Shown here piece by piece: positions 48,813-58,207 of a stretch of 64,000 nucleotides of DNA (within the stretch, counting starts at the first letter, position 1; each line of letters starts with the position of its first letter). The notes beneath the pieces are model-generated. The model worked only from the letters and a program-made list of their open reading frames with translations, ran no database searches and had not been told where the DNA came from. Both the position numbers and the translations under genes were made by a program. The stretch comes from Escherichia phage ECBP2. The DNA lies in sequence record NC_018859.1; one strand, given 5' to 3'.

Positions 48813-50033
48813 CTATTTATTGAAGAATAATTTTTCCAAAATGTTTTCCCACTCTTCTGAGGGACGTACTGTATAATTACTACCTGTCAGTCCATTGGAC
48901 ATACTACTGATAATGTTATACATGTTGTAGCTTCGAGCTGAAGCTGTTTCATTGTTCCAGTTATAACCGAACACAATTTTAGCAAAAGATGTTTCAGATT
49001 CAGCCACCTCTCGGATAAATTCAACCAAGAGTGACTTTTCTGTGATGATTGGGCGGGTATCTTCCGACAGATGGCAATATTGAGGCAAAAGGATTGGCAA
49101 GAACATCGAGTTGTTCACTCGACAATCACGAACACCTTCACTGCGATAGATCAGACTGGAGAAGTCTTCATCACGCAGGTGGCCTTCACCTTCAGTGTAT
49201 TCACACTGTCGCCATTTGGTCTGGCGAGGCTCAATCATCGTACTACCAACACCCACTGTATACAGAGATGCTTGGAAGATACAGGAATCGTAATCATTCC
49301 CTGTTAAAGCAACACGTTCGTTACCGAATACATTCACTGAAGAGTTGATCAGTCGGCTGAATGCAAGAGAGGCTAAAGGAGACCAGCCCTTCTTATACAT
49401 CTTGTTCAACATTTCATACACAGCAGATTTTTCATCATCTGTATAGAATGTGCGATTCAACATCAGATAGAACAGAGCACGATCAGCGGGACAGCCATCA
49501 GTGCAAACACCCATGAACCCCACTTCATGCCACACCAGACATGAGTCAGAGTCTTTGTCCATAAATGCTGCAAAGGTTTCCATAACAACACGATCAGTGA
49601 TGTCAGGACGGTTGTTTTCTTCTGCCCATGTTTCCACATGAGAAGGAGGACGAGGGTCTTCATTTTCTAACCCTTCACGGAAATACTGAGTAGCGATATA
49701 TTCAGTATCACCATAACGTCTTACACCGTGAGCTGGAAGATGTGTTCCGGAGTTCCAGATATACTTGATTTCAGACATAGGCAACATATTCTCAAGAACG
49801 TTCTCTTCAGCAGTGCCTTGACGAACCATCATATTTTTACTCCACACCTTGATGCGGATATTCCAGCCGTAGTTGCTGTCATACGTGTTGTAGTAGTCAG
49901 GATCATCGTCTTCATCATCTTCATCATAATCACCACCCTGATAGTAACCTGCTTTAAGGAAACCATAACAAGGAGGCCAGACGGTTACAACATCTTCTGA
50001 TTCTTTCCAGCTTTGAAGTGTTACAGGGAACAT
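48813..50033 (-). CDS. Hypothetical protein of the amidoligase block
   Basis: 406 aa with an acidic DEDDEDDDPD tract. SD AAGAGGT. Confidence 0.5.
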   Translation of the reverse strand: MFPVTLQSWKESEDVVTVWPPCYGFLKAGYYQGGDYDEDDEDDDPDYYNTYDSNYGWNIRIKVWSKNMMVRQGTAEENVLENMLPMSEIKYIWNSGTHLPAHGVRRYGDTEYIATQYFREGLENEDPRPPSHVETWAEENNRPDITDRVVMETFAAFMDKDSDSCLVWHEVGFMGVCTDGCPADRALFYLMLNRTFYTDDEKSAVYEMLNKMYKKGWSPLASLAFSRLINSSVNVFGNERVALTGNDYDSCIFQASLYTVGVGSTMIEPRQTKWRQCEYTEGEGHLRDEDFSSLIYRSEGVRDCRVNNSMFLPILLPQYCHLSEDTRPIITEKSLLVEFIREVAESETSFAKIVFGYNWNNETASARSYNMYNIISSMSNGLTGSNYTVRPSEEWENILEKLFFNK

Positions 50034-50044
50034 CTTTTACCTCT

Positions 50045-50407
50045 TTACTCTGCTACCAGAAGGCCCAGAGATTTGCGAATGTAGGCAATGCTACGGAAGT
50101 TTCGGTAGTTTTCTTGGAAGCGCATTTTTTCGAATTCTGCTTCCTGAAGTTCTACCTCTGCTGCATTGTATCCTGCCACAGCCAAACTCACCACATCCTG
50201 AGGTAAGGTATTACGACGACGAATAAGATATTTATTCGCCTTTAACTTGCTTTGTGCACGAGCCATTTTGGCCTTTGCCGCCTTGATGCCATGAGCAATC
50301 CAGAGCAATTGCTGCTCCAAATCATTCTCGTCCATGCCACCCAAATCATTTGCTACTTTATGCAGCGTAGACAGGTTCACATGGCCTTTGATGGGGCGTA
50401 GGTTCAT
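50045..50407 (-). CDS. Hypothetical helical protein
   Basis: 120 aa. Confidence 0.5.
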   Translation of the reverse strand: MNLRPIKGHVNLSTLHKVANDLGGMDENDLEQQLLWIAHGIKAAKAKMARAQSKLKANKYLIRRRNTLPQDVVSLAVAGYNAAEVELQEAEFEKMRFQENYRNFRSIAYIRKSLGLLVAE

Positions 50408-50571
50408 AACTTCTCCTGTTTATCACATTGATTGGTAAGCCAGTTATAAGACCCTCTGTTGTTCTTGCTTAATTCACAAGATACAAAGGAAGTCACACGG
50501 GCAAACCCCACGGTGGCTAAGCAAATAAAGATTGCTGCCAATAAGAACTTAACTTTCAACTTATTATCCAT
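50404..50571 (-). CDS. Small membrane/secreted protein (55 aa, below ORF-track cutoff)
   Basis: SD AAGAGG. Hydrophobic segment FLLAAIFICLATVGF. The stop overlaps the next start (ATGA). Confidence 0.4.
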   Translation of the reverse strand: MDNKLKVKFLLAAIFICLATVGFARVTSFVSCELSKNNRGSYNWLTNQCDKQEKL

Positions 50572-50591
50572 ACAACCTCTTCTTTGAACTT

Positions 50592-50616
50592 AAAAAAGGA
50601 CTCTCCTAAGAGAGCC
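50592..50616 (-). terminator. Rho-independent terminator inside spacer A
   Basis: Minus strand reads GGCTCTC-TTAG-GAGAGTCC followed by TTTTTT. Confidence 0.7.
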
Positions 50617-50812
50617 AAGCTTTAAGGCCAATTAAATAGATATCACCCAATATCTGTGGATAACCTGCTCTTAAAATATTCTATCCGACGGATGTTCGAG
50701 GACTGTTCCTCTCCCTAGCATCGGCCCCATACGGGTAAGATTAAATTAAGTTTAGGTTAGTTGAGCCAGAATAGCTCACATAGCCCTCTGATACTCACAA
50801 GGGCTATAGATG
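50617..50812 (-). ncRNA. Candidate structured RNA element, copy A (homologous to 56233..56462)
   Basis: ORF-free. Begins with hairpin ATAGCCCT-12 nt-AGGGCTAT straight after a stop codon, then a TTTAAT box, then a nested stem whose base pairs covary with copy B. Ends at a terminator. Confidence 0.35.
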
Positions 50813-51064
50813 TTACTCTGTGGCTCCGTCGAAGCGTAGGATTGCTGTTGGAACAGGAATCACAACCATGTCAATCTCTAAACGGAAGAGATGGCCTGTG
50901 CTTAGCTGAACTGCTGTTACCGGTTTAGCGATACCACCAACAGATGCTGAGGGGATTCGAATAAAGAAATCCCCCGGATATTCCGTTGCACGAAATACAT
51001 CTCCCGGTGACATATCCTTTACTTGGGTAATTGATTCAGGAGGGGTTTTATTAGCAATTTGCAT
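50813..51064 (-). CDS. Small protein of the GD(V/I/F)F family (1 of 7)
   Basis: Has the shared N-terminal pattern ...(L/V)..(L/M).(P/L/A)GD(V/I/C/F)F... and a beta-rich 75-87 aa body. Confidence 0.55.
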   Translation of the reverse strand: MQIANKTPPESITQVKDMSPGDVFRATEYPGDFFIRIPSASVGGIAKPVTAVQLSTGHLFRLEIDMVVIPVPTAILRFDGATE

Positions 51065-51297
51065 TACAGACCTTTCTTAGCACGATCTTTGGCAGTTTTG
51101 CCAGTGCGGATACGGTGGGAAACATTAACCAGCTCGCCGCCTTCGACGATGGTCACGCTTTTGTTTTTCGCAATATCAAACACAGACTTCTCTGTACCAC
51201 CCAGACGAATCTGACGCGGTTCACTTTGGGTCTGAGTTGACTTGGATTCAAACTGGAACGGCTGACGGATGGCATCAATTGCGCTAACTTTAGACAT
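51064..51297 (-). CDS. Hypothetical small protein
   Basis: SD AAGGTAA. 77 aa. Confidence 0.5.
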   Translation of the reverse strand: MSKVSAIDAIRQPFQFESKSTQTQSEPRQIRLGGTEKSVFDIAKNKSVTIVEGGELVNVSHRIRTGKTAKDRAKKGL

Positions 51298-51325
51298 GTT
51301 TTTATTACCTTAAATTAAAGAGAGA

Positions 51326-51739
51326 TTAAACAACGAATTGGAACGCTTCGTATCCAAACTTGTACGAGAAACCGTGCTTGAACTTCACTACACGACCACG
51401 ATCACGGAAAGCTTTCAGACGACTGCTGAACCCAGCCATCGGCTCAGGGTCAATAGGGCTGCGAATCTTCATAGCTACAGAGTGCAGCTTGAAGCGCTTA
51501 CCAGTGCTACAGGCCATCATCACGTACTCCATACGAGTAGTCCAGATGTTAAGCACCATGCTTGTTTTCTCCGCTGACCAACCAGTCTTGCGGGCGATTT
51601 CCTTATGGATGTTAAGTTCCAAAGGAAGTGGGAATTGCTTGTTGAATGAAGCCGGATAAAGCTTGACCAGAAGATCAATGTTTTCTTTATACGTTAAGTA
51701 AGCCAATTTCTTGCTTACGTTGGGGAATTTCCCAGCCAT
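51326..51739 (-). CDS. ProQ/FinO-domain RNA chaperone-like protein
   Basis: KENIDLLVKLYPASFNKQFPLPLELNIHKEI....WSAEKTSMVLNIWTTRMEYV......GKRFKL aligns with E. coli ProQ KEVIAFLAERFPHCF...RPLKIGIFQDL...[20 protein letters not shown]...GATRVDL. Confidence 0.6.
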   Translation of the reverse strand: MAGKFPNVSKKLAYLTYKENIDLLVKLYPASFNKQFPLPLELNIHKEIARKTGWSAEKTSMVLNIWTTRMEYVMMACSTGKRFKLHSVAMKIRSPIDPEPMAGFSSRLKAFRDRGRVVKFKHGFSYKFGYEAFQFVV

Positions 51740-51807
51740 TTTTGAAGCTCCAAAACAGCGCCGAAAAGAGAGGCGTCATAGTAGCTAAAGGGAGGAGAGA
51801 AGAGGGC

Positions 51808-51924
51808 TTATTTACTTGCCTTTTTCTGTCCGTTAATGTACCAGATAACTGAACCATCAGGCTGTCGTTGACCGAAGCCTTTCAAGTTAACCATTTCTTC
51901 TTCAGAGTAGGCACGTTTTCTCAC
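51808..51924 (-). CDS. Hypothetical micro-protein (38 aa)
   Basis: GTG start 7 nt after CAGGAGA. Basic. Confidence 0.3.
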   Translation of the reverse strand: MRKRAYSEEEMVNLKGFGQRQPDGSVIWYINGQKKASK

Positions 51925-51937
51925 TGATTTTCTCCTG

Positions 51938-52195
51938 TCAGTAGAAGGTGTGTGTAGAGTCGTCGTTCATAGATAACCAAACGAAGAAGACAATCACACA
52001 GAAAGCAATAATACCGAGAGTTGCAAGGATTATAGTGTTAGCTAATGTGATATCTAACACTCTTTGCAGGTACATAAAGAATTGTATGATACCACATAAC
52101 CCTAGCACGACCCCAATAACAATAAGGAGCCAGTACGTGCAGAGAAGGACTGCATCCAATAGTGATACATACTTTGGATCATCTTTATGTTTCAC
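51938..52195 (-). CDS. Small membrane protein
   Basis: Two to three hydrophobic helices (LLIVIGVVLGLCGIIQFF, IILATLGIIAFCVIVFFVWL). Confidence 0.5.
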   Translation of the reverse strand: MKHKDDPKYVSLLDAVLLCTYWLLIVIGVVLGLCGIIQFFMYLQRVLDITLANTIILATLGIIAFCVIVFFVWLSMNDDSTHTFY

Positions 52196-52448
52196 TAATC
52201 TTCTCCACTAAATCCAGAGTTGCCGATTCAAATACAACACCAACTGGCATATTGGATGCCATATTACGAACATATCCACTCTGCATCGACACAGCTCGGT
52301 GGTATTCACAACCATTAGAGCTTTTGTTTACTTTCATGTAAATGGTTTGTTCTTTATCTTCTTTCAAAGTAAAGAAAGAGCCGATAGAAACACCTGCCAC
52401 CATTAGAGGAATATCCGCAATACGAGTTTTGTTAATGGTCAGAGCCAT
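52185..52448 (-). CDS. Small protein, distant GD.F family member (2 of 7)
   Basis: SD AAGGAG. IGSFFTLKED sits at the family motif position. Confidence 0.45.
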   Translation of the reverse strand: MALTINKTRIADIPLMVAGVSIGSFFTLKEDKEQTIYMKVNKSSNGCEYHRAVSMQSGYVRNMASNMPVGVVFESATLDLVEKISET

Positions 52449-52451
52449 TGC

Positions 52452-52706
52452 TTACTCCTTAATAGTTGCTTCAGCTTTGATAGGAATAACAGCAACATCT
52501 TTACGAGGCGCTGTCGCTCGGCCTGTGTTAAGACAGGCTACGAGTCTGTGCTCATCCGCACCTTTAATGCAGAGTCGAGTTGAGAACTCGGTAGACAGCA
52601 AGATGTATAAATCACCATCTTCACTGTTAGGATACATAAAGCAATCCCCAAGTCGCAAAGCACTGAGGGGTATTGAATTTTTACCTGCTGGCATGTTAAC
52701 TTTCAT
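52452..52706 (-). CDS. Small protein of the GD.F family (3 of 7)
   Basis: LSALRLGDCFMYPN motif. Confidence 0.5.
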   Translation of the reverse strand: MKVNMPAGKNSIPLSALRLGDCFMYPNSEDGDLYILLSTEFSTRLCIKGADEHRLVACLNTGRATAPRKDVAVIPIKAEATIKE

Positions 52707-52716
52707 TTCATCACCT

Positions 52717-53013
52717 TTATTTGTGAGAGTTTACGAACTCTTCAAGAACATTAACTGCATCTCGATATGCATTGGTAACTTTATACCAGTGATCAGTACC
52801 GAATGCACTCGGTTTGACGATTCTAACCAGACGACGGTGATAACGCACTGAGTAGACTAGATTCTCATAAGTCACCCTCAGTTCGTTTTTGCGTTCCATC
52901 TGAATAGATTTAAGGTGTCGCTTTGTTTTCCAGACTGTTACCGGCATAACCCTCTTACCTTGTTGTAAAGTATGGACCAATTTATGAAAGAACTCTCGGA
53001 AGAATGCTTTCAT
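52717..53013 (-). CDS. Hypothetical basic protein
   Basis: 98 aa. Its ATG directly follows the hairpin GGGAGG-8 nt-CCTCCC. Confidence 0.5.
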   Translation of the reverse strand: MKAFFREFFHKLVHTLQQGKRVMPVTVWKTKRHLKSIQMERKNELRVTYENLVYSVRYHRRLVRIVKPSAFGTDHWYKVTNAYRDAVNVLEEFVNSHK

Positions 53014-53231
53014 AAATAGGGGGAGGGGACGAATCCTCCCATATCCTATTAATTAATGTTGCATGTAAGACCTAACAATCCGATGCTGTAGTGGATAGCG
53101 TAAAACGCTTACCGGCATTAAACCCAGCCCATGAGGGGCTTATGTGATTAAAATGCTCAACATTGAGCGGTTAGTTGATAGGAGATCTGAAGTCCTATCT
53201 CAAAGGACTCTCGTAAGAATCCTTCACGATA

Positions 53232-53486
53232 TTACTTAGTAATAAAGACTGTCACCTTATCCATTACCCAGCCTATCAACATAAGGAAAGGTAAGAAGAG
53301 GATAAAGATCAGCATAAAAGGCCAGAAGAATATTACCGTCCAAATAGAATATTCATCAGGCTTACCACTCCATGAGGAATGGAAGAAGTTGTAGAGTGTA
53401 TTGGTTTTGAAGCACCATTTAACTACAATGGCTGCTAACCACCAACCAATAACATAAATCAGGAGGACATACGCTGCTGTAATCAT
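53232..53486 (-). CDS. Small membrane protein
   Basis: Three hydrophobic helices, W/F-rich. Confidence 0.5.
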   Translation of the reverse strand: MITAAYVLLIYVIGWWLAAIVVKWCFKTNTLYNFFHSSWSGKPDEYSIWTVIFFWPFMLIFILFLPFLMLIGWVMDKVTVFITK

Positions 53487-53713
53487 TCACCGTTCCATTG
53501 ATAGTTGCGAGTTACCACGTTTCCGTGGATAAGGAAGTGCTGGCGGCGAAGGATATCTTTAACGTTGTAGTAGGCAGCGTTACCGAGATGGCCTTCTTTA
53601 ATAAGCCAACGAAGATTACGGATATCAACCAACAGCATTTTTACTTGCTGTTGGCATGAAGTTTGAGCTGCTGTTTCAAGTAGAGCTTTCGTATCAGAAT
53701 AATGACCGGACAT
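53483..53713 (-). CDS. Hypothetical small protein
   Basis: 76 aa with an ATGA overlap. Confidence 0.5.
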   Translation of the reverse strand: MSGHYSDTKALLETAAQTSCQQQVKMLLVDIRNLRWLIKEGHLGNAAYYNVKDILRRQHFLIHGNVVTRNYQWNGE

Positions 53714-53714
53714 A

Positions 53715-54041
53715 TCACCACTCCTTACCTGTTGTTGTCACAGAGCCACCACACAGCTCACCACGGGAGATGAAGTCATAACGTGACCAATCACCTTGGG
53801 TAGCCATATCACGCTTTGCATAAGCCTTCTCGTCAACAGCACCGCCATTGGAACAAGAAGCACCAGCATAACGCATATCAATTTCACCACTAGGAATCTT
53901 CTCCCCGCTGTGCCAACGGGAAACACAGACACCTTCTACCGATAATGCACACCATCCATCAGGACGATGCTGTACGCAGCCTGTAAGAGCTACACAGGCG
54001 ATAAAGATACAGGTTAAGGTAATTACACCACCCCAGCTCAT
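53715..54041 (-). CDS. Lipoprotein, Cys-rich
   Basis: Signal peptide with lipobox LTGC. Confidence 0.55.
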   Translation of the reverse strand: MSWGGVITLTCIFIACVALTGCVQHRPDGWCALSVEGVCVSRWHSGEKIPSGEIDMRYAGASCSNGGAVDEKAYAKRDMATQGDWSRYDFISRGELCGGSVTTTGKEW

Positions 54042-54178
54042 GATCCCTCCTGAAGCGCCTTACGGCGGCTATCTCGCCAAGCCATCCAAGTGTAGATTTT
54101 GAGTTCTTCTCTTTCTTCTTCACTGAACAAACGAGGAGTGAAGATATCATCAAACCATTTATTAAACTCAGGGGTCAT
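54038..54178 (-). CDS. Hypothetical small protein (46 aa, below ORF-track cutoff)
   Basis: SD GGAGGG lies 4 nt before the ATG. The stop overlaps the next start (ATGA). Confidence 0.4.
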   Translation of the reverse strand: MTPEFNKWFDDIFTPRLFSEEEREELKIYTWMAWRDSRRKALQEGS

Positions 54179-54294
54179 ATACCCTCCTACGTTGATTGGT
54201 AGCCCCAAGATGCCGTATCTTATCCAACGACCCCATACAGACCTATAGGCTATTGTATGGCGCCGAAGGAGTACGCAAGCATCTTAGGGACATA
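54179..54294 (-). ncRNA. Candidate structured RNA immediately 3' of tRNA-Arg
   Basis: An 11-bp long-range stem CCCUAAGAUGC/GCAUCUUGGGG encloses a 7-bp hairpin CCAUACA...UGUAUGG. It shares GUAUGGGG(U/C)CG with spacer A. Confidence 0.3.
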
Positions 54295-54370
54295 TGGTGC
54301 ACCCTACAGGATTCGAACCTGTAACCAACGACTTAGAAGGTCGCTGCTCTATCCATTGAGCTAAGGGTGC
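54295..54370 (-). tRNA. tRNA-Arg(UCU): tRNA-Arg, anticodon UCU, CCA encoded
   Basis: Minus strand folds as a 76 nt cloverleaf: GCACCCT TA GCTC AATGGATA GAGC A GCGAC CTTCTAA GTCGT TGGTT ACAGG TTCGAAT CCTGT AGGGTGC ACCA. Confidence 0.9.
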
Positions 54371-54379
54371 TTGAATTGT

Positions 54380-54688
54380 TTATAAGGAGAAAGACTTCTT
54401 ACAATCCTTATCTTCAAAAGTGTAGTAGCCTGTTGTATCAGGGAAGTAGGCATACTTTGTTTCTTTGCCATCAGTAGCCATGACACGATTACCAGAAGTT
54501 GTTTCTACAAACAGAAGCCCATCTCTTACCATACCATTAGATTCTTTGATACCAGTTAAGCTATGCTCTTTAAGAGTGCATTGCTGAACACTCTGATACT
54601 TAACTCCAATCTCTGCACTATTAACAGAGATGATACCAATGGTTGTCATTAGTAGTAAGGTTGAGATGATAAAATGCTTTTGTTTCAC
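54380..54688 (-). CDS. Secreted protein
   Basis: GTG start after AGAGGT. Signal-like N-terminus HFIISTLLLMTTIGIISVNSA. Confidence 0.5.
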   Translation of the reverse strand: MKQKHFIISTLLLMTTIGIISVNSAEIGVKYQSVQQCTLKEHSLTGIKESNGMVRDGLLFVETTSGNRVMATDGKETKYAYFPDTTGYYTFEDKDCKKSFSL

Positions 54689-54706
54689 ATTAACCTCTGG
54701 ATTTAT

Positions 54707-54916
54707 TTAACTGAAGATACGCAAGGCCACATCGTGATAGATATGACCGGGGACTTTGTGCTGTTCTATTTTCAAACAGCGTTTACAGACACGAGATACA
54801 CGAGACTCTTTCGCTTCAACTGGAGTGTCTTTAGCGTGAGTGATATGTAAGTTTTCAGTGATCACCCACTCGTGTTTACATCCAGAATCTTCGGGCTTTT
54901 TCTTACGAAAGAACAT
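54707..54916 (-). CDS. Small zinc-ribbon protein, tandem paralogue 3
   Basis: CKHEW...VCKRCLK. SD AAGAGGTG. Confidence 0.45.
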   Translation of the reverse strand: MFFRKKKPEDSGCKHEWVITENLHITHAKDTPVEAKESRVSRVCKRCLKIEQHKVPGHIYHDVALRIFS

Positions 54917-54924
54917 AACACCTC

Positions 54925-55089
54925 TTAGATCAAATCTGTTTTCTTGTGCTTACCACACACTTTACAGCGGGAGTAGATACGCAACCCTTGCTGCTCTCCT
55001 CCAGCAATACGATGTGTAACCTTTAGTTCATAAGTAGAAAGATCTTCCCACTCATGGAAATGAAAGAAACGTTTGAACCATTTAATCAT
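54925..55089 (-). CDS. Small zinc-ribbon protein, tandem paralogue 2 (54 aa, below ORF-track cutoff)
   Basis: MIKWFKRFFHFHEW...RCKVCGK. Confidence 0.4.
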   Translation of the reverse strand: MIKWFKRFFHFHEWEDLSTYELKVTHRIAGGEQQGLRIYSRCKVCGKHKKTDLI

Positions 55090-55098
55090 AACGATTCC

Positions 55099-55245
55099 TT
55101 AGATTATGTCACGATGACTAACTTCACCACACACTTTACACTGGATATCGTAACGTACGCCCCTTGAATCTCCACAGATCAGCGGACGGGTGGCAATAAT
55201 CTTCCAATCATGACAATGAAAGACACGCTTTATCCACGTAATCAT
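55099..55245 (-). CDS. Small zinc-ribbon protein, tandem paralogue 1 (48 aa, below ORF-track cutoff)
   Basis: MITWIKRVFHCHDW...QCKVCGE. Confidence 0.4.
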   Translation of the reverse strand: MITWIKRVFHCHDWKIIATRPLICGDSRGVRYDIQCKVCGEVSHRDII

Positions 55246-55246
55246 A

Positions 55247-55504
55247 TTAAACACACGCCGGTAGTTCAATTAACTGAGGAGCACGACAAGGACCATCTTC
55301 ATACACACCAACCAACGTTGGCATGTAAGGCCCAGCGCACTGGTATTCGTCGAACAGTTCGTTATAGTTAGGCTTCCACTTCCAAGCCCACACATAACCC
55401 ATTCGATCAATGGCAATGTAACGAGTGTTCAGAGGAACCTGCATCATCACATCACCAACTGCTATTACTTTCGTAATAACTGCTGCTCGGAAATTTGTCT
55501 TCAT
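55247..55504 (-). CDS. Hypothetical small protein
   Basis: 85 aa. Confidence 0.5.
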   Translation of the reverse strand: MKTNFRAAVITKVIAVGDVMMQVPLNTRYIAIDRMGYVWAWKWKPNYNELFDEYQCAGPYMPTLVGVYEDGPCRAPQLIELPACV

Positions 55505-55752
55505 GGCGCTTTAATCTCAATCTGAACATTGACAACAAATACAGTATGGTTTGCACTGTACACCGAAGTGCCTATGATTGGCTTGTCATCACTGAGGATT
55601 TCAACAGCGTGTTCAAGGTTGATCTTCAGATGAAGACGCCCTGATTCCATGAAGAAATCACCAGCACGTATCTCACCGAACTTGGCTGGCACACCGATAG
55701 AGGGTATCAGTATGTCAGTGCGACCTTTACGGTCAAATAAACGATTAAACAT
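55501..55752 (-). CDS. Small protein of the GD.F family (4 of 7)
   Basis: FGEIRAGDFFMESG motif. SD AGAGAGG. Confidence 0.5.
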   Translation of the reverse strand: MFNRLFDRKGRTDILIPSIGVPAKFGEIRAGDFFMESGRLHLKINLEHAVEILSDDKPIIGTSVYSANHTVFVVNVQIEIKAP

Positions 55753-55795
55753 ATCAACCTCTCTTGTTAGTTTAAGTAAGAGTTATCCCTTAATT

Positions 55796-55826
55796 AAAAC
55801 AACAAAGGCCACCCCGAAGGGCAGCC
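55796..55826 (-). terminator. Rho-independent terminator
   Basis: Minus strand reads GGCTGCCC-TTCG-GGGTGGCC followed by TTTGTTGTTTT. Confidence 0.7.
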
Positions 55827-55831
55827 TCTTA

Positions 55832-56029
55832 TTAAGCACTACGCAGTTTGTTATTCAAGAAGCGATCTTCTGCATTATATAGGAATGCATAGAATAATTC
55901 TTTTGCTACATCCCGATCGCAATTGAGACATTTAGAAACCTGTAACAACAGGCCATCGCGACTGTTAGGATGGTCAATTATCGCAAGACGAATAATCTCA
56001 CGGATACCAACATCATGCTCAGCCGCCAT
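55832..56029 (-). CDS. Hypothetical small protein
   Basis: Start MAAEHD overlaps the stop of the upstream micro-ORF. Confidence 0.45.
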   Translation of the reverse strand: MAAEHDVGIREIIRLAIIDHPNSRDGLLLQVSKCLNCDRDVAKELFYAFLYNAEDRFLNNKLRSA

Positions 56030-56159
56030 AGAACCAATCACCTTGACGCTTACGGATGTTAGTGGTCAGACGAAGCATGGCAGACTCAATCTTCAGAGCA
56101 CCATTTGCTACTGCATCCATACGTTCAGGACGGTTCATACGTTTGGTTGTCTTTTTCAT
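56019..56159 (-). CDS. Hypothetical basic micro-protein (46 aa)
   Basis: Reads MKKTTKRMNRPERMD... Below the ORF-track cutoff. Weak SD. Confidence 0.3.
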   Translation of the reverse strand: MKKTTKRMNRPERMDAVANGALKIESAMLRLTTNIRKRQGDWFYGG

Positions 56160-56197
56160 AACGTTCTCTCTTTGTTAATGGAGGCAGGATTGCCAGT

Positions 56198-56232
56198 TAA
56201 TATAAAGGGAAGCCCTACACGTTAAGGCTTCC
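56198..56232 (-). terminator. Terminator-like hairpin inside spacer B
   Basis: Minus strand reads GGAAGCC-11 nt-GGCTTCC followed by CTTTATATT. Confidence 0.5.
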
Positions 56233-56462
56233 GCTTGTACAAACTGTCGAGAACTCTCTACCCCTAGATTGTTCTCTATCCCAAACCGATACATACCCCT
56301 ACATATCGGAATGCCATTCGAAAATTAAACAGGTTTTAGTCTATCACCGGATGTTTGAGACAAGTCTCGCCCTAGCGGTGAGCCATATGGCATTGAGATT
56401 ATAGTTAATTGAGGAACATCCTCACATAGCCCTCTGATAAACACAAGGGCTATAAGTCGATG
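56233..56462 (-). ncRNA. Candidate structured RNA element, copy B (homologous to 50617..50812)
   Basis: Same order of parts as copy A: post-stop hairpin ATAGCCCT/AGGGCTAT, TATAAT box, covarying nested stem. It has two further hairpins with UAGGGGUA loops, then a terminator-like hairpin. Confidence 0.35.
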
Positions 56463-56687
56463 TTACTTATTAGTTAGTCGAACGTTAGGCACAAGTTTAA
56501 CTGCTGCTGTTTTCATCTCTCCAATGACCTTACCGGTAGAGAGATTAACAAAATAAGCAGTGACTTCACCACCACAAGCTGTACGCATATAATAACTGCT
56601 TCCAGTTCTGTCAAACTGAAAAACGTCTCCCGGCTTTACATCACCAAGAGTTGTGACGCTTTGCTTTTTATCAATATCAATCTTCAT
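56463..56687 (-). CDS. Small protein of the GD.F family (5 of 7)
   Basis: LGDVKPGDVFQFD motif. Confidence 0.55.
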   Translation of the reverse strand: MKIDIDKKQSVTTLGDVKPGDVFQFDRTGSSYYMRTACGGEVTAYFVNLSTGKVIGEMKTAAVKLVPNVRLTNK

Positions 56688-56918
56688 TTAACCACCAATA
56701 TTCGTTACTTGTACATTAGGTACAGAGATAACTTCATGATCTTCAGGTATCTGGAACAAAGTCCCCTGACCAAGACCAACGACACGGCGCATACCCTGCA
56801 CATAGGTGTCTGTCTTTAGGTAGAGGTGTTCAGTGTTATTTTGTAATCGGAATACGTCACCCGGACGTAGATCGCTGAGCTTTTTAGTAACAACTAAAGA
56901 TGGGAGATTAATTTTCAT
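56688..56918 (-). CDS. Small protein of the GD.F family (6 of 7)
   Basis: LSDLRPGDVFRLQ motif. Confidence 0.55.
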   Translation of the reverse strand: MKINLPSLVVTKKLSDLRPGDVFRLQNNTEHLYLKTDTYVQGMRRVVGLGQGTLFQIPEDHEVISVPNVQVTNIGG

Positions 56919-57157
56919 TACTTACTCTCGATAGCAATTTTGTATTCATACTTAGAGACTTCAGCGTCCGCAGAAACCTTAAGTATATCAGAGGTGTTGT
57001 TTAATTGCATTGCCGATGAATATTGAGATGATACCTTCATCCAGAAAAAGGTGTCACCATCGGGGTTTTGAAACTTGAAGATGTCCCCATTAGAGAGGTC
57101 ACCGAAAGTTAACTTATTTTGTTTAGGCTTGGGGATGATTTCGAAATTCATTTTCAT
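56918..57157 (-). CDS. Small protein of the GD.F family (7 of 7)
   Basis: FGDLSNGDIFKFQ motif. Confidence 0.55.
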   Translation of the reverse strand: MKMNFEIIPKPKQNKLTFGDLSNGDIFKFQNPDGDTFFWMKVSSQYSSAMQLNNTSDILKVSADAEVSKYEYKIAIESK

Positions 57158-57330
57158 TTGATTAACACCAAATCAGTACGACGTTCGAAGGAAGGGGAAG
57201 ACTCACCATTCCACTGAACAAGATAACAGAGAACACCATCAATTATTGTTCTCTGACGAATAACACCTGTAATAGTTCCACCAACAAGGCGAACGGTGTC
57301 GCCAATGGTAATTTTAACCTTTGAGCGCAT
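57154..57330 (-). CDS. Small SH3/KOW-like protein
   Basis: Start set at MRSKVKITIGDTVRL, after the upstream gene. Confidence 0.4.
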   Translation of the reverse strand: MRSKVKITIGDTVRLVGGTITGVIRQRTIIDGVLCYLVQWNGESSPSFERRTDLVLIK

Positions 57331-57619
57331 CTCCTGTTTCCTCATTCTGGCGTTTAATTTCTTCAGTGAGTTGCTTATTGAGATCTTGAATACGCTTAAT
57401 CTCCCAACCCAAAGAAGCCAAACGATCATTACGTGCTTCGATTTGCTCCTGCATCTTTGCCAGCTTAAGTCGAGTAGCATCATTAAAGTCTTCCTCTAGC
57501 TTAAGAAGGAACTCGTAACAACGCTTCCAGCTTGCTGATTTATTTCTTAAAATAATAAATCCTAGAGTAGAAATCGTTACAGTGAGTACGAAAAGAAATT
57601 TATAAACCTCTAAAGTCAT
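57314..57619 (-). CDS. Membrane-anchored coiled-coil protein
   Basis: N-terminal TM FLFVLTVTISTLGFIIL followed by a charged helix. SD AAGAGGA. Confidence 0.5.
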   Translation of the reverse strand: MTLEVYKFLFVLTVTISTLGFIILRNKSASWKRCYEFLLKLEEDFNDATRLKLAKMQEQIEARNDRLASLGWEIKRIQDLNKQLTEEIKRQNEETGDALKG

Positions 57620-57820
57620 ATCTTTATCCTCTTAAAGTAAGATATTATAAGAAATATTATTTAGAATTTATTATTTCTAAACTTAATTTCTATCAATAAT
57701 TTTCAGAGGTCTATATACAGTCATTACCTCTGGTTCCGAATCACTACCACTTTTTGCAGAGAAAATCATAAGTAGGTGATTTATAAAGGAATTTAGTTTG
57801 CCAATCTTGGCACCTATGAA

Positions 57821-58207
57821 TCAGTCACGGGCACTATTATTGAACACTAAATCACCACAATACATAGGATTGGTATACCACTTTGGCACCCCTTCACTCT
57901 TACTTTGAAAGTGTGTACCGCTGTACAAAGGCACATAATCTTTCTTCAGTGCACGTCTTGCAAGCCGCTCGCTCTCTCTGATTGACTTCTTAGTCAGAGG
58001 GTTATCATCACGAATCAGCTTTACATAACGCTTAAAAGGTTTCTCCTTCTTTAATAAGACGGGTATCCACTCGAACTGGTTTCGTTGGTTTATAACCTGC
58101 TCGGCAGTCAGTTTTCGTTGTGACATTCTGTTTATTACGGTATCCGCTACTAATGCTTTGCAAGCGGTTGGCTGATTCCCTGCCTCATAATAAATAGTCA
58201 ATGTCAA
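57821..58207 (-). CDS. Cell-wall hydrolase, SleB-like; start uncertain
   Basis: YYEAGNQPTACKALVADTVINRMS...NQFEW resembles the SleB/CwlJ hydrolase core (EA..Q....AVA.V..NR). Confidence 0.5.
   Translation of the reverse strand: MTLTIYYEAGNQPTACKALVADTVINRMSQRKLTAEQVINQRNQFEWIPVLLKKEKPFKRYVKLIRDDNPLTKKSIRESERLARRALKKDYVPLYSGTHFQSKSEGVPKWYTNPMYCGDLVFNNSARD

Follow-up and report, generated by a model that had tools for sequence, protein, structure and literature searches.

The right-end gene cluster of phage phiEco32 belongs to the early class, and its products vary widely, have no known function and are presumed to take part in the takeover of the host (PMC8948821; PMC9965538). Phages of this group remodel the host RNA polymerase (RNAP) with small proteins (PMC8948821; PMC12276001). 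In T-even phages, a family of LSm-like early proteins has been described, for which an RNA-related role is hypothesised (PMC12152347). Here we report the analysis of a 64,000-nucleotide (nt) stretch of Escherichia phage ECBP2 (sequence record NC_018859.1), referred to as the window, in which seven small open reading frames (ORFs) lie between positions 50,813 and 57,157. Their relatives at the sequence level are gp21 of phage N4, a set of PHROG families and nine proteins of phiEco32 (gp95-98 in tandem, gp104, gp109 and gp113-115). The N4 and phiEco32 relatives have the same length as the products of the seven ORFs, share with them the motif [FL]xD[LVI]xxG[DE]VF ... Y[MIL]K ... AVNLxTG ... V.PV and, like them, sit among small genes that are transcribed before the late genes. 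N4 carries one copy in its first 22 kb, compared with seven in the ECBP2 window. As these relatives are without an assigned function, membership of the family provides a name and no mechanism.

We favour the interpretation that the family members are binding modules without enzymatic activity, whose partners differ by type and are most likely host proteins, and which would act early in infection. We give this reading a probability of roughly 0.5.

RESULTS

Seven small genes and their membership of one family

All seven ORFs are present at the coordinates listed by a first-pass annotation, which had been made from the letters and a list of ORFs. They are on the minus strand, start with ATG, encode 74-87 amino acids (aa) and are named here by their left-hand coordinate. 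Three members abut in direct tandem, as that annotation had noted: 56918 (56918..57157, 79 aa) is the first gene, 56688 (56688..56918, 76 aa) is the family hub, whose sequence was used for modelling, and 56463 (56463..56687, 74 aa, isoelectric point (pI) 9.4) is the third gene and the last in its transcription unit. A second tandem pair consists of 52452 (52452..52706, 84 aa), which has a longer central loop, and 52185 (52185..52448, 87 aa), in which GSFF replaces GD.F. Member 50813 (50813..51064, 83 aa) is the final gene of a putative early transcription unit, and 55501 (55501..55752, 83 aa) is a divergent member, extended by 20 aa at its N-terminus, whose central hairpin is degenerate. By eye, an AG-rich stretch that might bind ribosomes lies no more than about 15 nt upstream of the ATG in most members and is weakest for 56918.

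Pairwise Nei-Gojobori comparison with the related phages SU7, Bas88 and PAS59 gave ratios of nonsynonymous to synonymous substitution (dN/dS) of 0.03-0.32 for the members, at synonymous distances (dS) of 0.1-0.6. The ratio was 0.04-0.23 for 50813, 0.04-0.16 for 52185, 0.03-0.05 for 52452, 0-0.10 for 55501 and 0.29-0.32 for 56688; the overall span of 0.03-0.32 falls inside the range of neighbouring early genes (0.02-0.77). The seven ORFs are clearly real genes under purifying selection.

Direct BLASTP between the members is weak to moderate, and profiles were used for this reason. In a leave-one-out design, a hidden Markov model (HMM) was built from the other six ORFs and tested on 634 stop-to-stop ORFs of the window and on 1000 shuffles of the same sequence. 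Six members were each ranked first among the 634 ORFs and above the 1000 shuffles, with E-values from 1e-14 to 1.2e-3 (1.7e-7 for 50813, 1.2e-3 for 52185 and 1e-14 for 56688), while 55501 reached E=0.1. A second HMM, which drew on 120 distant homologues from elsewhere and on no other sequence, detected the same six at E=4e-19 to 3e-11 (50813, 1.1e-16; 52185, 2.7e-11; 52452, 2.6e-15; 56463, 4.4e-19; 56688, 2.9e-18; 56918, 5.3e-14), and no shuffle scored above 8 bits. With this model 55501 scored 9.2 bits (E=0.04), above all 2100 shuffles; across the HMM tests it is marginal (E=0.03-0.1). Scanning PHROG revealed dense cross-matches among phrog_6570, 7832, 7431, 9955, 16423, 12612 and 10911 for the six members. 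Thus 50813 matches phrog_6570 at 1.3e-22 in addition to cross-matches, 52185 matches phrog_12612 at 5.6e-36 (a PHROG to which 50813 and 56688 also have matches), 52452 matches phrog_7832 and phrog_7431, 56463 matches phrog_9955 with five cross-matches, and 56918 matches phrog_10911 with cross-matches. The only match of 55501 is phrog_22099.

In profile-profile comparisons with hhalign, 56688 behaves as a hub: probabilities are 96-97% to 50813 and 56463 (96.6% for 56463), 87% to 52452 and 86% over 60 columns to 55501. When the 55501 group was aligned with a family profile of 101 sequences, the probability was 94.8% (E=5e-8) over 56 columns that span the whole domain. Many other direct pairs are individually insignificant (probability below 50%). 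The first-pass annotation had staked the family on pairwise significance, which is missing for many direct pairs; it is the hub 56688 and the family-wide profiles that carry the assignment. The paralogous family is genuine, six members being recovered by HMM and 55501 by hhalign. From these profile comparisons we regard six ORFs as certain members and 55501 as a probable, strongly diverged one; the description 'most divergent', previously attached to 52185, belongs to 55501, given its HMM scores and degenerate hairpin. A search of the 64-kb window with the family profile found no further member, as no other ORF had E<3.

Column statistics for 126 sequences, together with the alignments, define the motif of the family as [FL]xD[LVI]xxG[DE]VF, Y[MIL][KR], AVxLxTG and V.(P)V. 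With its GSFF, 52185 departs from this motif and from the GD(V/I/F)F signature proposed earlier. Two other deviations were seen: 55501 is devoid of the TG hairpin and the C-terminal motif of 56918 is weak.

Genomic setting

Positions 50000-58000 of the window match 108 phage records. The closest are Escherichia phages of 76-79 kb in the Gordonclarkvirinae (SU7, IME267, EK010, Bas86-88 and TH34), with 90-94% identity, and Kuravirus proper (phiEco32, NJ01, MN05 and SGF2) is a more distant match. Judging from these matches, the window is from a Gordonclarkvirinae (phiEco32/SU7-like) phage. Its genes are on the minus strand from about 18 kb through to the end of the window, and the seven genes sit in co-directional units. 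The region is syntenic with SU7, 4E8 and phiEco32, and the counterparts of the seven ORFs are labelled 'hypothetical protein' in every annotated relative. Because the homologous right-hand cluster is early in phiEco32, we infer that these genes are expressed early. The picture of a large early-region family in a genome of about 75-80 kb accordingly agrees with the synteny and with the size of the closest relatives.

A predicted small beta-barrel

An AlphaFold2 model of 56688, generated from a 23-sequence alignment, has a predicted local distance difference test (pLDDT) score of 81.5 and a predicted template modelling (pTM) score of 0.69. Six beta-strands form a barrel with one short helical turn. 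This model and the Foldseek search described below supply the structural check that the first-pass annotation had called for. The model of 55501 has a pLDDT of 40, too low for fold comparison. Foldseek searches of the 56688 model against the PDB gave no match below E=0.05, and the top structural matches are SH3-like domains of translation proteins (uL2, EF-P/eIF5A) and KOW/Tudor domains. The modelled barrel is superposable on SH3, KOW or Tudor domains. The domain is thus predicted to be a six-stranded, SH3-like small beta-barrel, an assignment to a fold class and not to a characterised family. Likeness to the uL2 C-terminal domain, the EF-P/eIF5A N-domain, FeoA, the C-terminal SH3 domain of DtxR/IdeR, Tudor and the CarD/UvrD C-terminal domain exists at the level of fold class only. 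These barrels are domains of cellular machines, whereas the family members are standalone phage proteins, and no sequence relation joins the two (no Pfam match at E<=1, PDB profile E=0.48, Foldseek E>=0.05). The best match of the family profile against PDB sequences, at E=0.48 (Rpb3, NlpC/P60), was rejected as a non-homologous, local resemblance of a 'pGDvF..Y' hairpin.

Against the viral models of BFVD, 24 matches below 1e-3 were obtained, with template modelling scores of 0.7-0.88 to family members. They come from coliphages, N4-like phages, jumbo Erwinia/Serratia phages and Proteus, Vibrio and Pseudomonas phages. Functional annotation is missing from 22 of the 24; the other two bear record labels only, 'Endolysin' for a protein of vB_EcoP_EcoN5 and 'ZP domain-containing protein' for one from Proteus phage Myduc.

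Across the 126 sequences, conservation was mapped on the numbering of 56688, which gave as informative columns the N-terminal M-K-I, F14, L17, G20, D/E21, F23, Y33, M34, K35, V47, L49, T51, G52 and V63. F14, L17, F23, Y33, M34, V47, L49 and V63 make up a conserved hydrophobic core, and G20, which is invariant, T51 and G52 mark conserved turns; the N-terminal M-K-I, a single basic residue (K35) and, in part, D16/D21 are also conserved. The remaining positions, including the loops, are nearly unconstrained across the family, and no conserved residues of a catalytic type were seen in these columns. Each orthologue group, on the other hand, is constrained over its full sequence length. Constraint along the whole length of each type, combined with sharing of the core alone between paralogues, fits functional divergence of the copies. 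The pI spans 5.2-9.4 in the window members and has a median of 5.7 in 120 homologues, 12% of which exceed 8. This range of charge argues against a uniform nucleic-acid binder and equally against a uniform DNA mimic.

Repertoire of the family in related phages

The family profile was applied to the syntenic early region of eight genomes, including the window. Copy number, whose comparison had been suggested at the outset, varies from four to nine: SU7 has four, Bas88 five, 4E8 and PAS59 six each, the window six (seven with 55501), MN05 eight, and SGF2 and phiEco32 nine each. At a threshold of >=50% identity the 53 proteins fall into 18 groups, giving at least 18 types, none of which occurs in more than five of the eight genomes. 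Orthologues of 50813 were found in SU7, Bas88, PAS59 and 4E8; 56463 is found in Bas88 and is absent from SU7 and PAS59; of the phages compared, just two have a counterpart of 56918, namely PAS59 (identity 62%) and phiEco32 (41%).

No two paralogues of one genome share more than about 35% identity, and for this reason the expansion is old and does not stem from recent duplication. Present-day variation arises as long-diverged types are present, missing or replaced at a few positions of the arrays. With four to nine copies and no universal type, the family is best described as accessory.

Distribution across phages

An HMM profile made without 55501 was searched exhaustively against 1.84 billion representatives; at a cut-off of E<=1e-3 it recovered 588 clusters at 50% identity, most of them standalone proteins of 70-90 aa. 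The search of metagenomic phage proteins advised by the first-pass annotation therefore places the family broadly among phages, and the expansion is not particular to ECBP2. Phage N4 gp21 is a member at E=2.4e-18. A word-indexed search retrieved orthologues only, on contigs of about 77 kb. Between 83 and 86 of 101 distant members match phrog_6570, 7832 or 7431, so that these PHROGs constitute one superfamily. The PHROGs of the family are 6570, 7832, 7431, 12612, 8365, 9955, 16423, 10911 and 34455, and distantly 22099; all are labelled 'unknown function'.

Fusions with two to six copies of the domain, whose repeats open with 'L(T/K)FGDLK.GDKF', were found in P0051, P0054-56, P0060, P0064, P0106 and P0122, while the multi-repeat matches P0048 and P0078 were discarded as spurious (low-complexity or RCC1-like repeats). 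Tandem arrangement recurs in unrelated metagenomic contigs, as in L012, where five domains are spread over three neighbouring genes, and in L014, which has three members. The fusion P0122 (L009 10001-12040) is a 679-aa protein in which an N-terminal region with a vWA-like DxSxS motif, recognised by eye, precedes six family domains. Among the other products of its large, phage-like contig are a sigma factor, PARP, the ribosomal proteins S21 and L7/L12, and a glycosyltransferase of the GT4-conflict type.

Annotation resources yielded little. Pfam has no match to the seven ORFs at E<=1 (KOW, FeoA, DtxR-SH3, LSm and S1 included) or to ten distant members at E<=0.1, no NCBIfam model matches the seven ORFs, and a PADLOC scan of the seven ORFs and of distant and fusion members returned nothing meaningful. 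Similarity to characterised host-factor inhibitor or defence families was absent from the Pfam (which includes some of these, for example Gad2), NCBIfam, PADLOC and PDB searches. Tblastn of the profile consensus against phages, too insensitive a method for a 76-aa domain, returned nothing beyond close relatives and a single Vibrio phage, and against plasmids it found no match. The literature searches turned up no account of these paralogues as a family.

Hairpins, untranslated spacers and neighbouring genes

Two members, 50813 and 56463, are followed on the minus strand by homologous untranslated spacers of about 200-300 nt (50572-50812 and 56160-56462), which bears out the report of a homologous structured spacer behind two stop codons. 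A near-identical element, TAA-CATC and then a hairpin with a 9-bp stem, is found at both stops. Behind 50813 the hairpin (50779..50808, minus strand) has a 12-nt loop and begins a few nt past the stop, and the second copy lies behind 56463 (56425..56454, minus strand); both emerged from a search for repeat pairs and from the spacer alignment. A pattern search for the hairpin gave two matches in the window where none was expected. Weaker similarity extends for about 130 nt after the hairpin and includes conserved blocks, AACATCCG among them. Terminator-like hairpins mark the end of both spacers. The first of these (50599..50616, minus strand) has a T-run and closes the unit ending with 50813; SU7 has an annotated terminator at the syntenic position. 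The second (56208..56232, minus strand) closes the unit ending with 56463. As a hairpin and a terminator-like hairpin lie behind each stop, 50813 and 56463 would close early units and share a 3' untranslated region (3'UTR) of about 200 nt. The spacers, for which Rfam holds no family, might represent RNAs processed from the 3'UTR or elements with a stabilising role.

A 137-aa protein with a ProQ/FinO match (PF04352, 27.3 bits against a cutoff of 27) is encoded at 51326-51739 (minus strand), in a unit that holds three family members. Its gene is present in SU7, Bas88 and PAS59, and no tblastn match was found in 4E8, phiEco32, MN05 or SGF2. ProQ-type proteins bind structured 3' ends, a property that may bear on the conserved 3'UTR hairpins.

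Other small genes of the region were recorded. A second tandem set of paralogues (54707-54916, 54925-55089 and 55099-55269, minus strand) encodes zinc-ribbon-like proteins of 54-69 aa with HxW...CxxC; 54925 and 55099 are 39% identical (E=3e-13), and 54707 is more weakly related (E=0.002). A listed 109-aa ORF at 57154-57483 (minus strand) overlaps the gene of a 101-aa protein (57314-57619; phrog_12154), which is labelled 'DNA helicase' although it is so small. Judged against SU7_106, the true gene probably comprises just the C-terminal 58 aa (57154-57330), whose 'GDTV...G' pattern recalls small barrels; it is unmatched by Pfam, PHROG and the family profile. In the early region, far from the late lysis genes, 57821-58207 (minus strand) encodes 128 aa that include a cell-wall hydrolase domain of the SleB type (PF07486, E=4e-7). 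Within the early cluster lies a tRNA gene (54298-54370, minus strand; Rfam 73.8 bits), annotated as tRNA-Arg(tct) in relatives. Two minus-strand ORFs, 52717-53013 (98 aa) and 54380-54688 (102 aa), look like recent insertions into the early region because tblastn found no counterpart in any of the seven relatives compared. The N-terminus of the latter has a hydrophobic run, by eye a possible signal peptide or membrane anchor.

DISCUSSION

We propose a model to rationalize the presence of many divergent copies of one small domain in these phages. Single-domain barrels of about 75-87 aa, belonging to an ancient, phage-specific family typified by N4 gp21, would serve as a non-enzymatic scaffold. 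Each type would have a conserved surface of its own for contact, early in infection, with a partner that differs from type to type and is most likely a host protein. The set as a whole would amount to an accessory toolkit for host takeover or counter-defence, put together as genes were gained, lost and exchanged and not by recent duplication. The pattern is that of a non-enzymatic scaffold with a type-specific surface, because core and turns are conserved family-wide and the whole sequence is conserved within orthologue groups.

Several points weigh against this model. No member of the family has an experimental function or a known partner, and the SH3-class matches cannot indicate one, as the class includes RNA-, DNA- and RNAP-binding domains. 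Distant members lie mostly among unannotated small genes, with no recurrent neighbour. Early expression in ECBP2 is deduced from synteny, and a simple scan for sigma-70 promoters gave no enrichment here (11 sites against 18.6 expected). The pairwise dN/dS comparisons did not detect positive selection, and the values for the members are no higher than those of neighbouring early genes; the arms-race evolution envisaged by the first-pass annotation leaves no such trace.

Is the toolkit directed at host immunity? An anti-defence role is possible. That the family is specifically anti-defence, each type countering a different immune system, for instance through attachment to a sensor or an effector or through sequestration of a signal, we consider rather unlikely. 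The repertoire is early, accessory and variable, as this reading would have it. One distant member lies directly upstream of a gene of the Gad2 (anti-Gabija) family on a 122-kb phage contig, and one multi-domain fusion is found amid conflict-type genes (PARP, GT4-conflict). Gordonclarkvirinae are reported to be highly resistant to the defence systems tested, a finding that is consistent with this role and that serves as context, without a link to the family genes (PMC11990801). The Gad2 neighbourhood is a single case and the other contexts are uninformative; the failure to detect positive selection and the lack of plasmid homologues by tblastn also count against the proposal. In addition, loci for a dCTP deaminase and a nucleotidyltransferase suggest DNA modification, which could account for resistance to restriction-modification without the family genes. 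Such a locus is conserved in these phages (BASEL supplementary figure, PMC11990801).

A less likely explanation is that the proteins are small nucleic-acid-binding barrels of the Sm/LSm, KOW or uL2/EF-P type, which would modulate RNA stability, translation or transcription elongation, much as has been proposed for GoF/MotB.1/Frd.2 of T4. The top structural matches (uL2, EF-P/eIF5A, KOW/Tudor), the conserved basic K35, the ProQ/FinO-like gene in a unit with three members and the structured homologous 3'UTRs behind two of them all point in this direction, as does the precedent of the LSm-like proteins in T-even phages (PMC12152347). Set against this, most members are acidic to neutral, as the median pI and the small share above 8 illustrate, the KOW, LSm and S1 families of Pfam are unmatched at E<=1, and the 56688 model is without the N-terminal helix of the Sm type. 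The T4 proteins GoF, MotB.1 and Frd.2, too, are small-barrel early proteins of unknown role, recognised mainly by structure prediction (PMC12152347). In these, an LSm-like motif occupies the N-terminus of longer proteins that are mutually dissimilar. No sequence link to them was seen in the PHROG matches, which involve small families, and no direct comparison was made.

It is improbable that the members are RNAP-binding regulators comparable to CarD, TRCF-RID or the C-terminal Tudor domain of UvrD, redirecting host transcription beside gp79 and the phage sigma factor. Remodelling of host RNAP by small proteins in this phage group lends the idea its appeal. However, matches of the CarD, TRCF-RID and UvrD type are generic and rank below uL2, EF-P and FeoA, and seven RNAP binders in one phage are hard to rationalise. 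The gp79 protein of phiEco32, an 82-aa RNAP-binding transcription factor, resembles the family in size, phage group and a target in the host machinery (PMC8948821; PMC12276001). Unlike the family members, it is encoded in the middle-gene region beside amidoligase genes. Kinship was ruled out, as the gp79 ORF (L003 12602-12850) is absent from the matches of both family profiles, which counts against this explanation. Furthermore, N4 has a family member too, and this phage relies on RNA polymerases of its own for early and middle transcription.

Finally, chance or compositional resemblance, or ORFs that are not genes, would explain the weak direct profile-profile comparisons and the marginal HMM scores of 55501, but is so improbable as to be ruled out for six members by family-wide profiles reaching E=1e-19, the leave-one-out ranks, the PHROG cross-matches, a confident common fold, dN/dS far below 1 and orthologues kept in many phages.

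What are the implications of a family of non-enzymatic, type-specific binding modules? On present evidence the gain is one of naming and annotation, without a new mechanism. About ten PHROGs of 'unknown function', N4 gp21, the early block of phiEco32 and hundreds of metagenomic clusters are joined into one domain family. Bas86-88 of the BASEL collection carry at least five copies and infect a derivative of E. coli K-12 with restored O-antigen expression. It is chiefly in the early regions of phages that unknown functions of host takeover and counter-defence reside, and there the family, with its confident fold, clear signature and tendency to form tandem arrays and fusions, is a defined and tractable target. 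We speculate, as an unlikely generalization, that the domain is an evolvable binder scaffold that many phage lineages have diversified, arrayed and fused to target host proteins, immune sensors included. If this were true, the four to nine copies in Gordonclarkvirinae would be a mix-and-match repertoire that helps to set host range, and at least 588 'hypothetical' clusters would gain a common functional logic.

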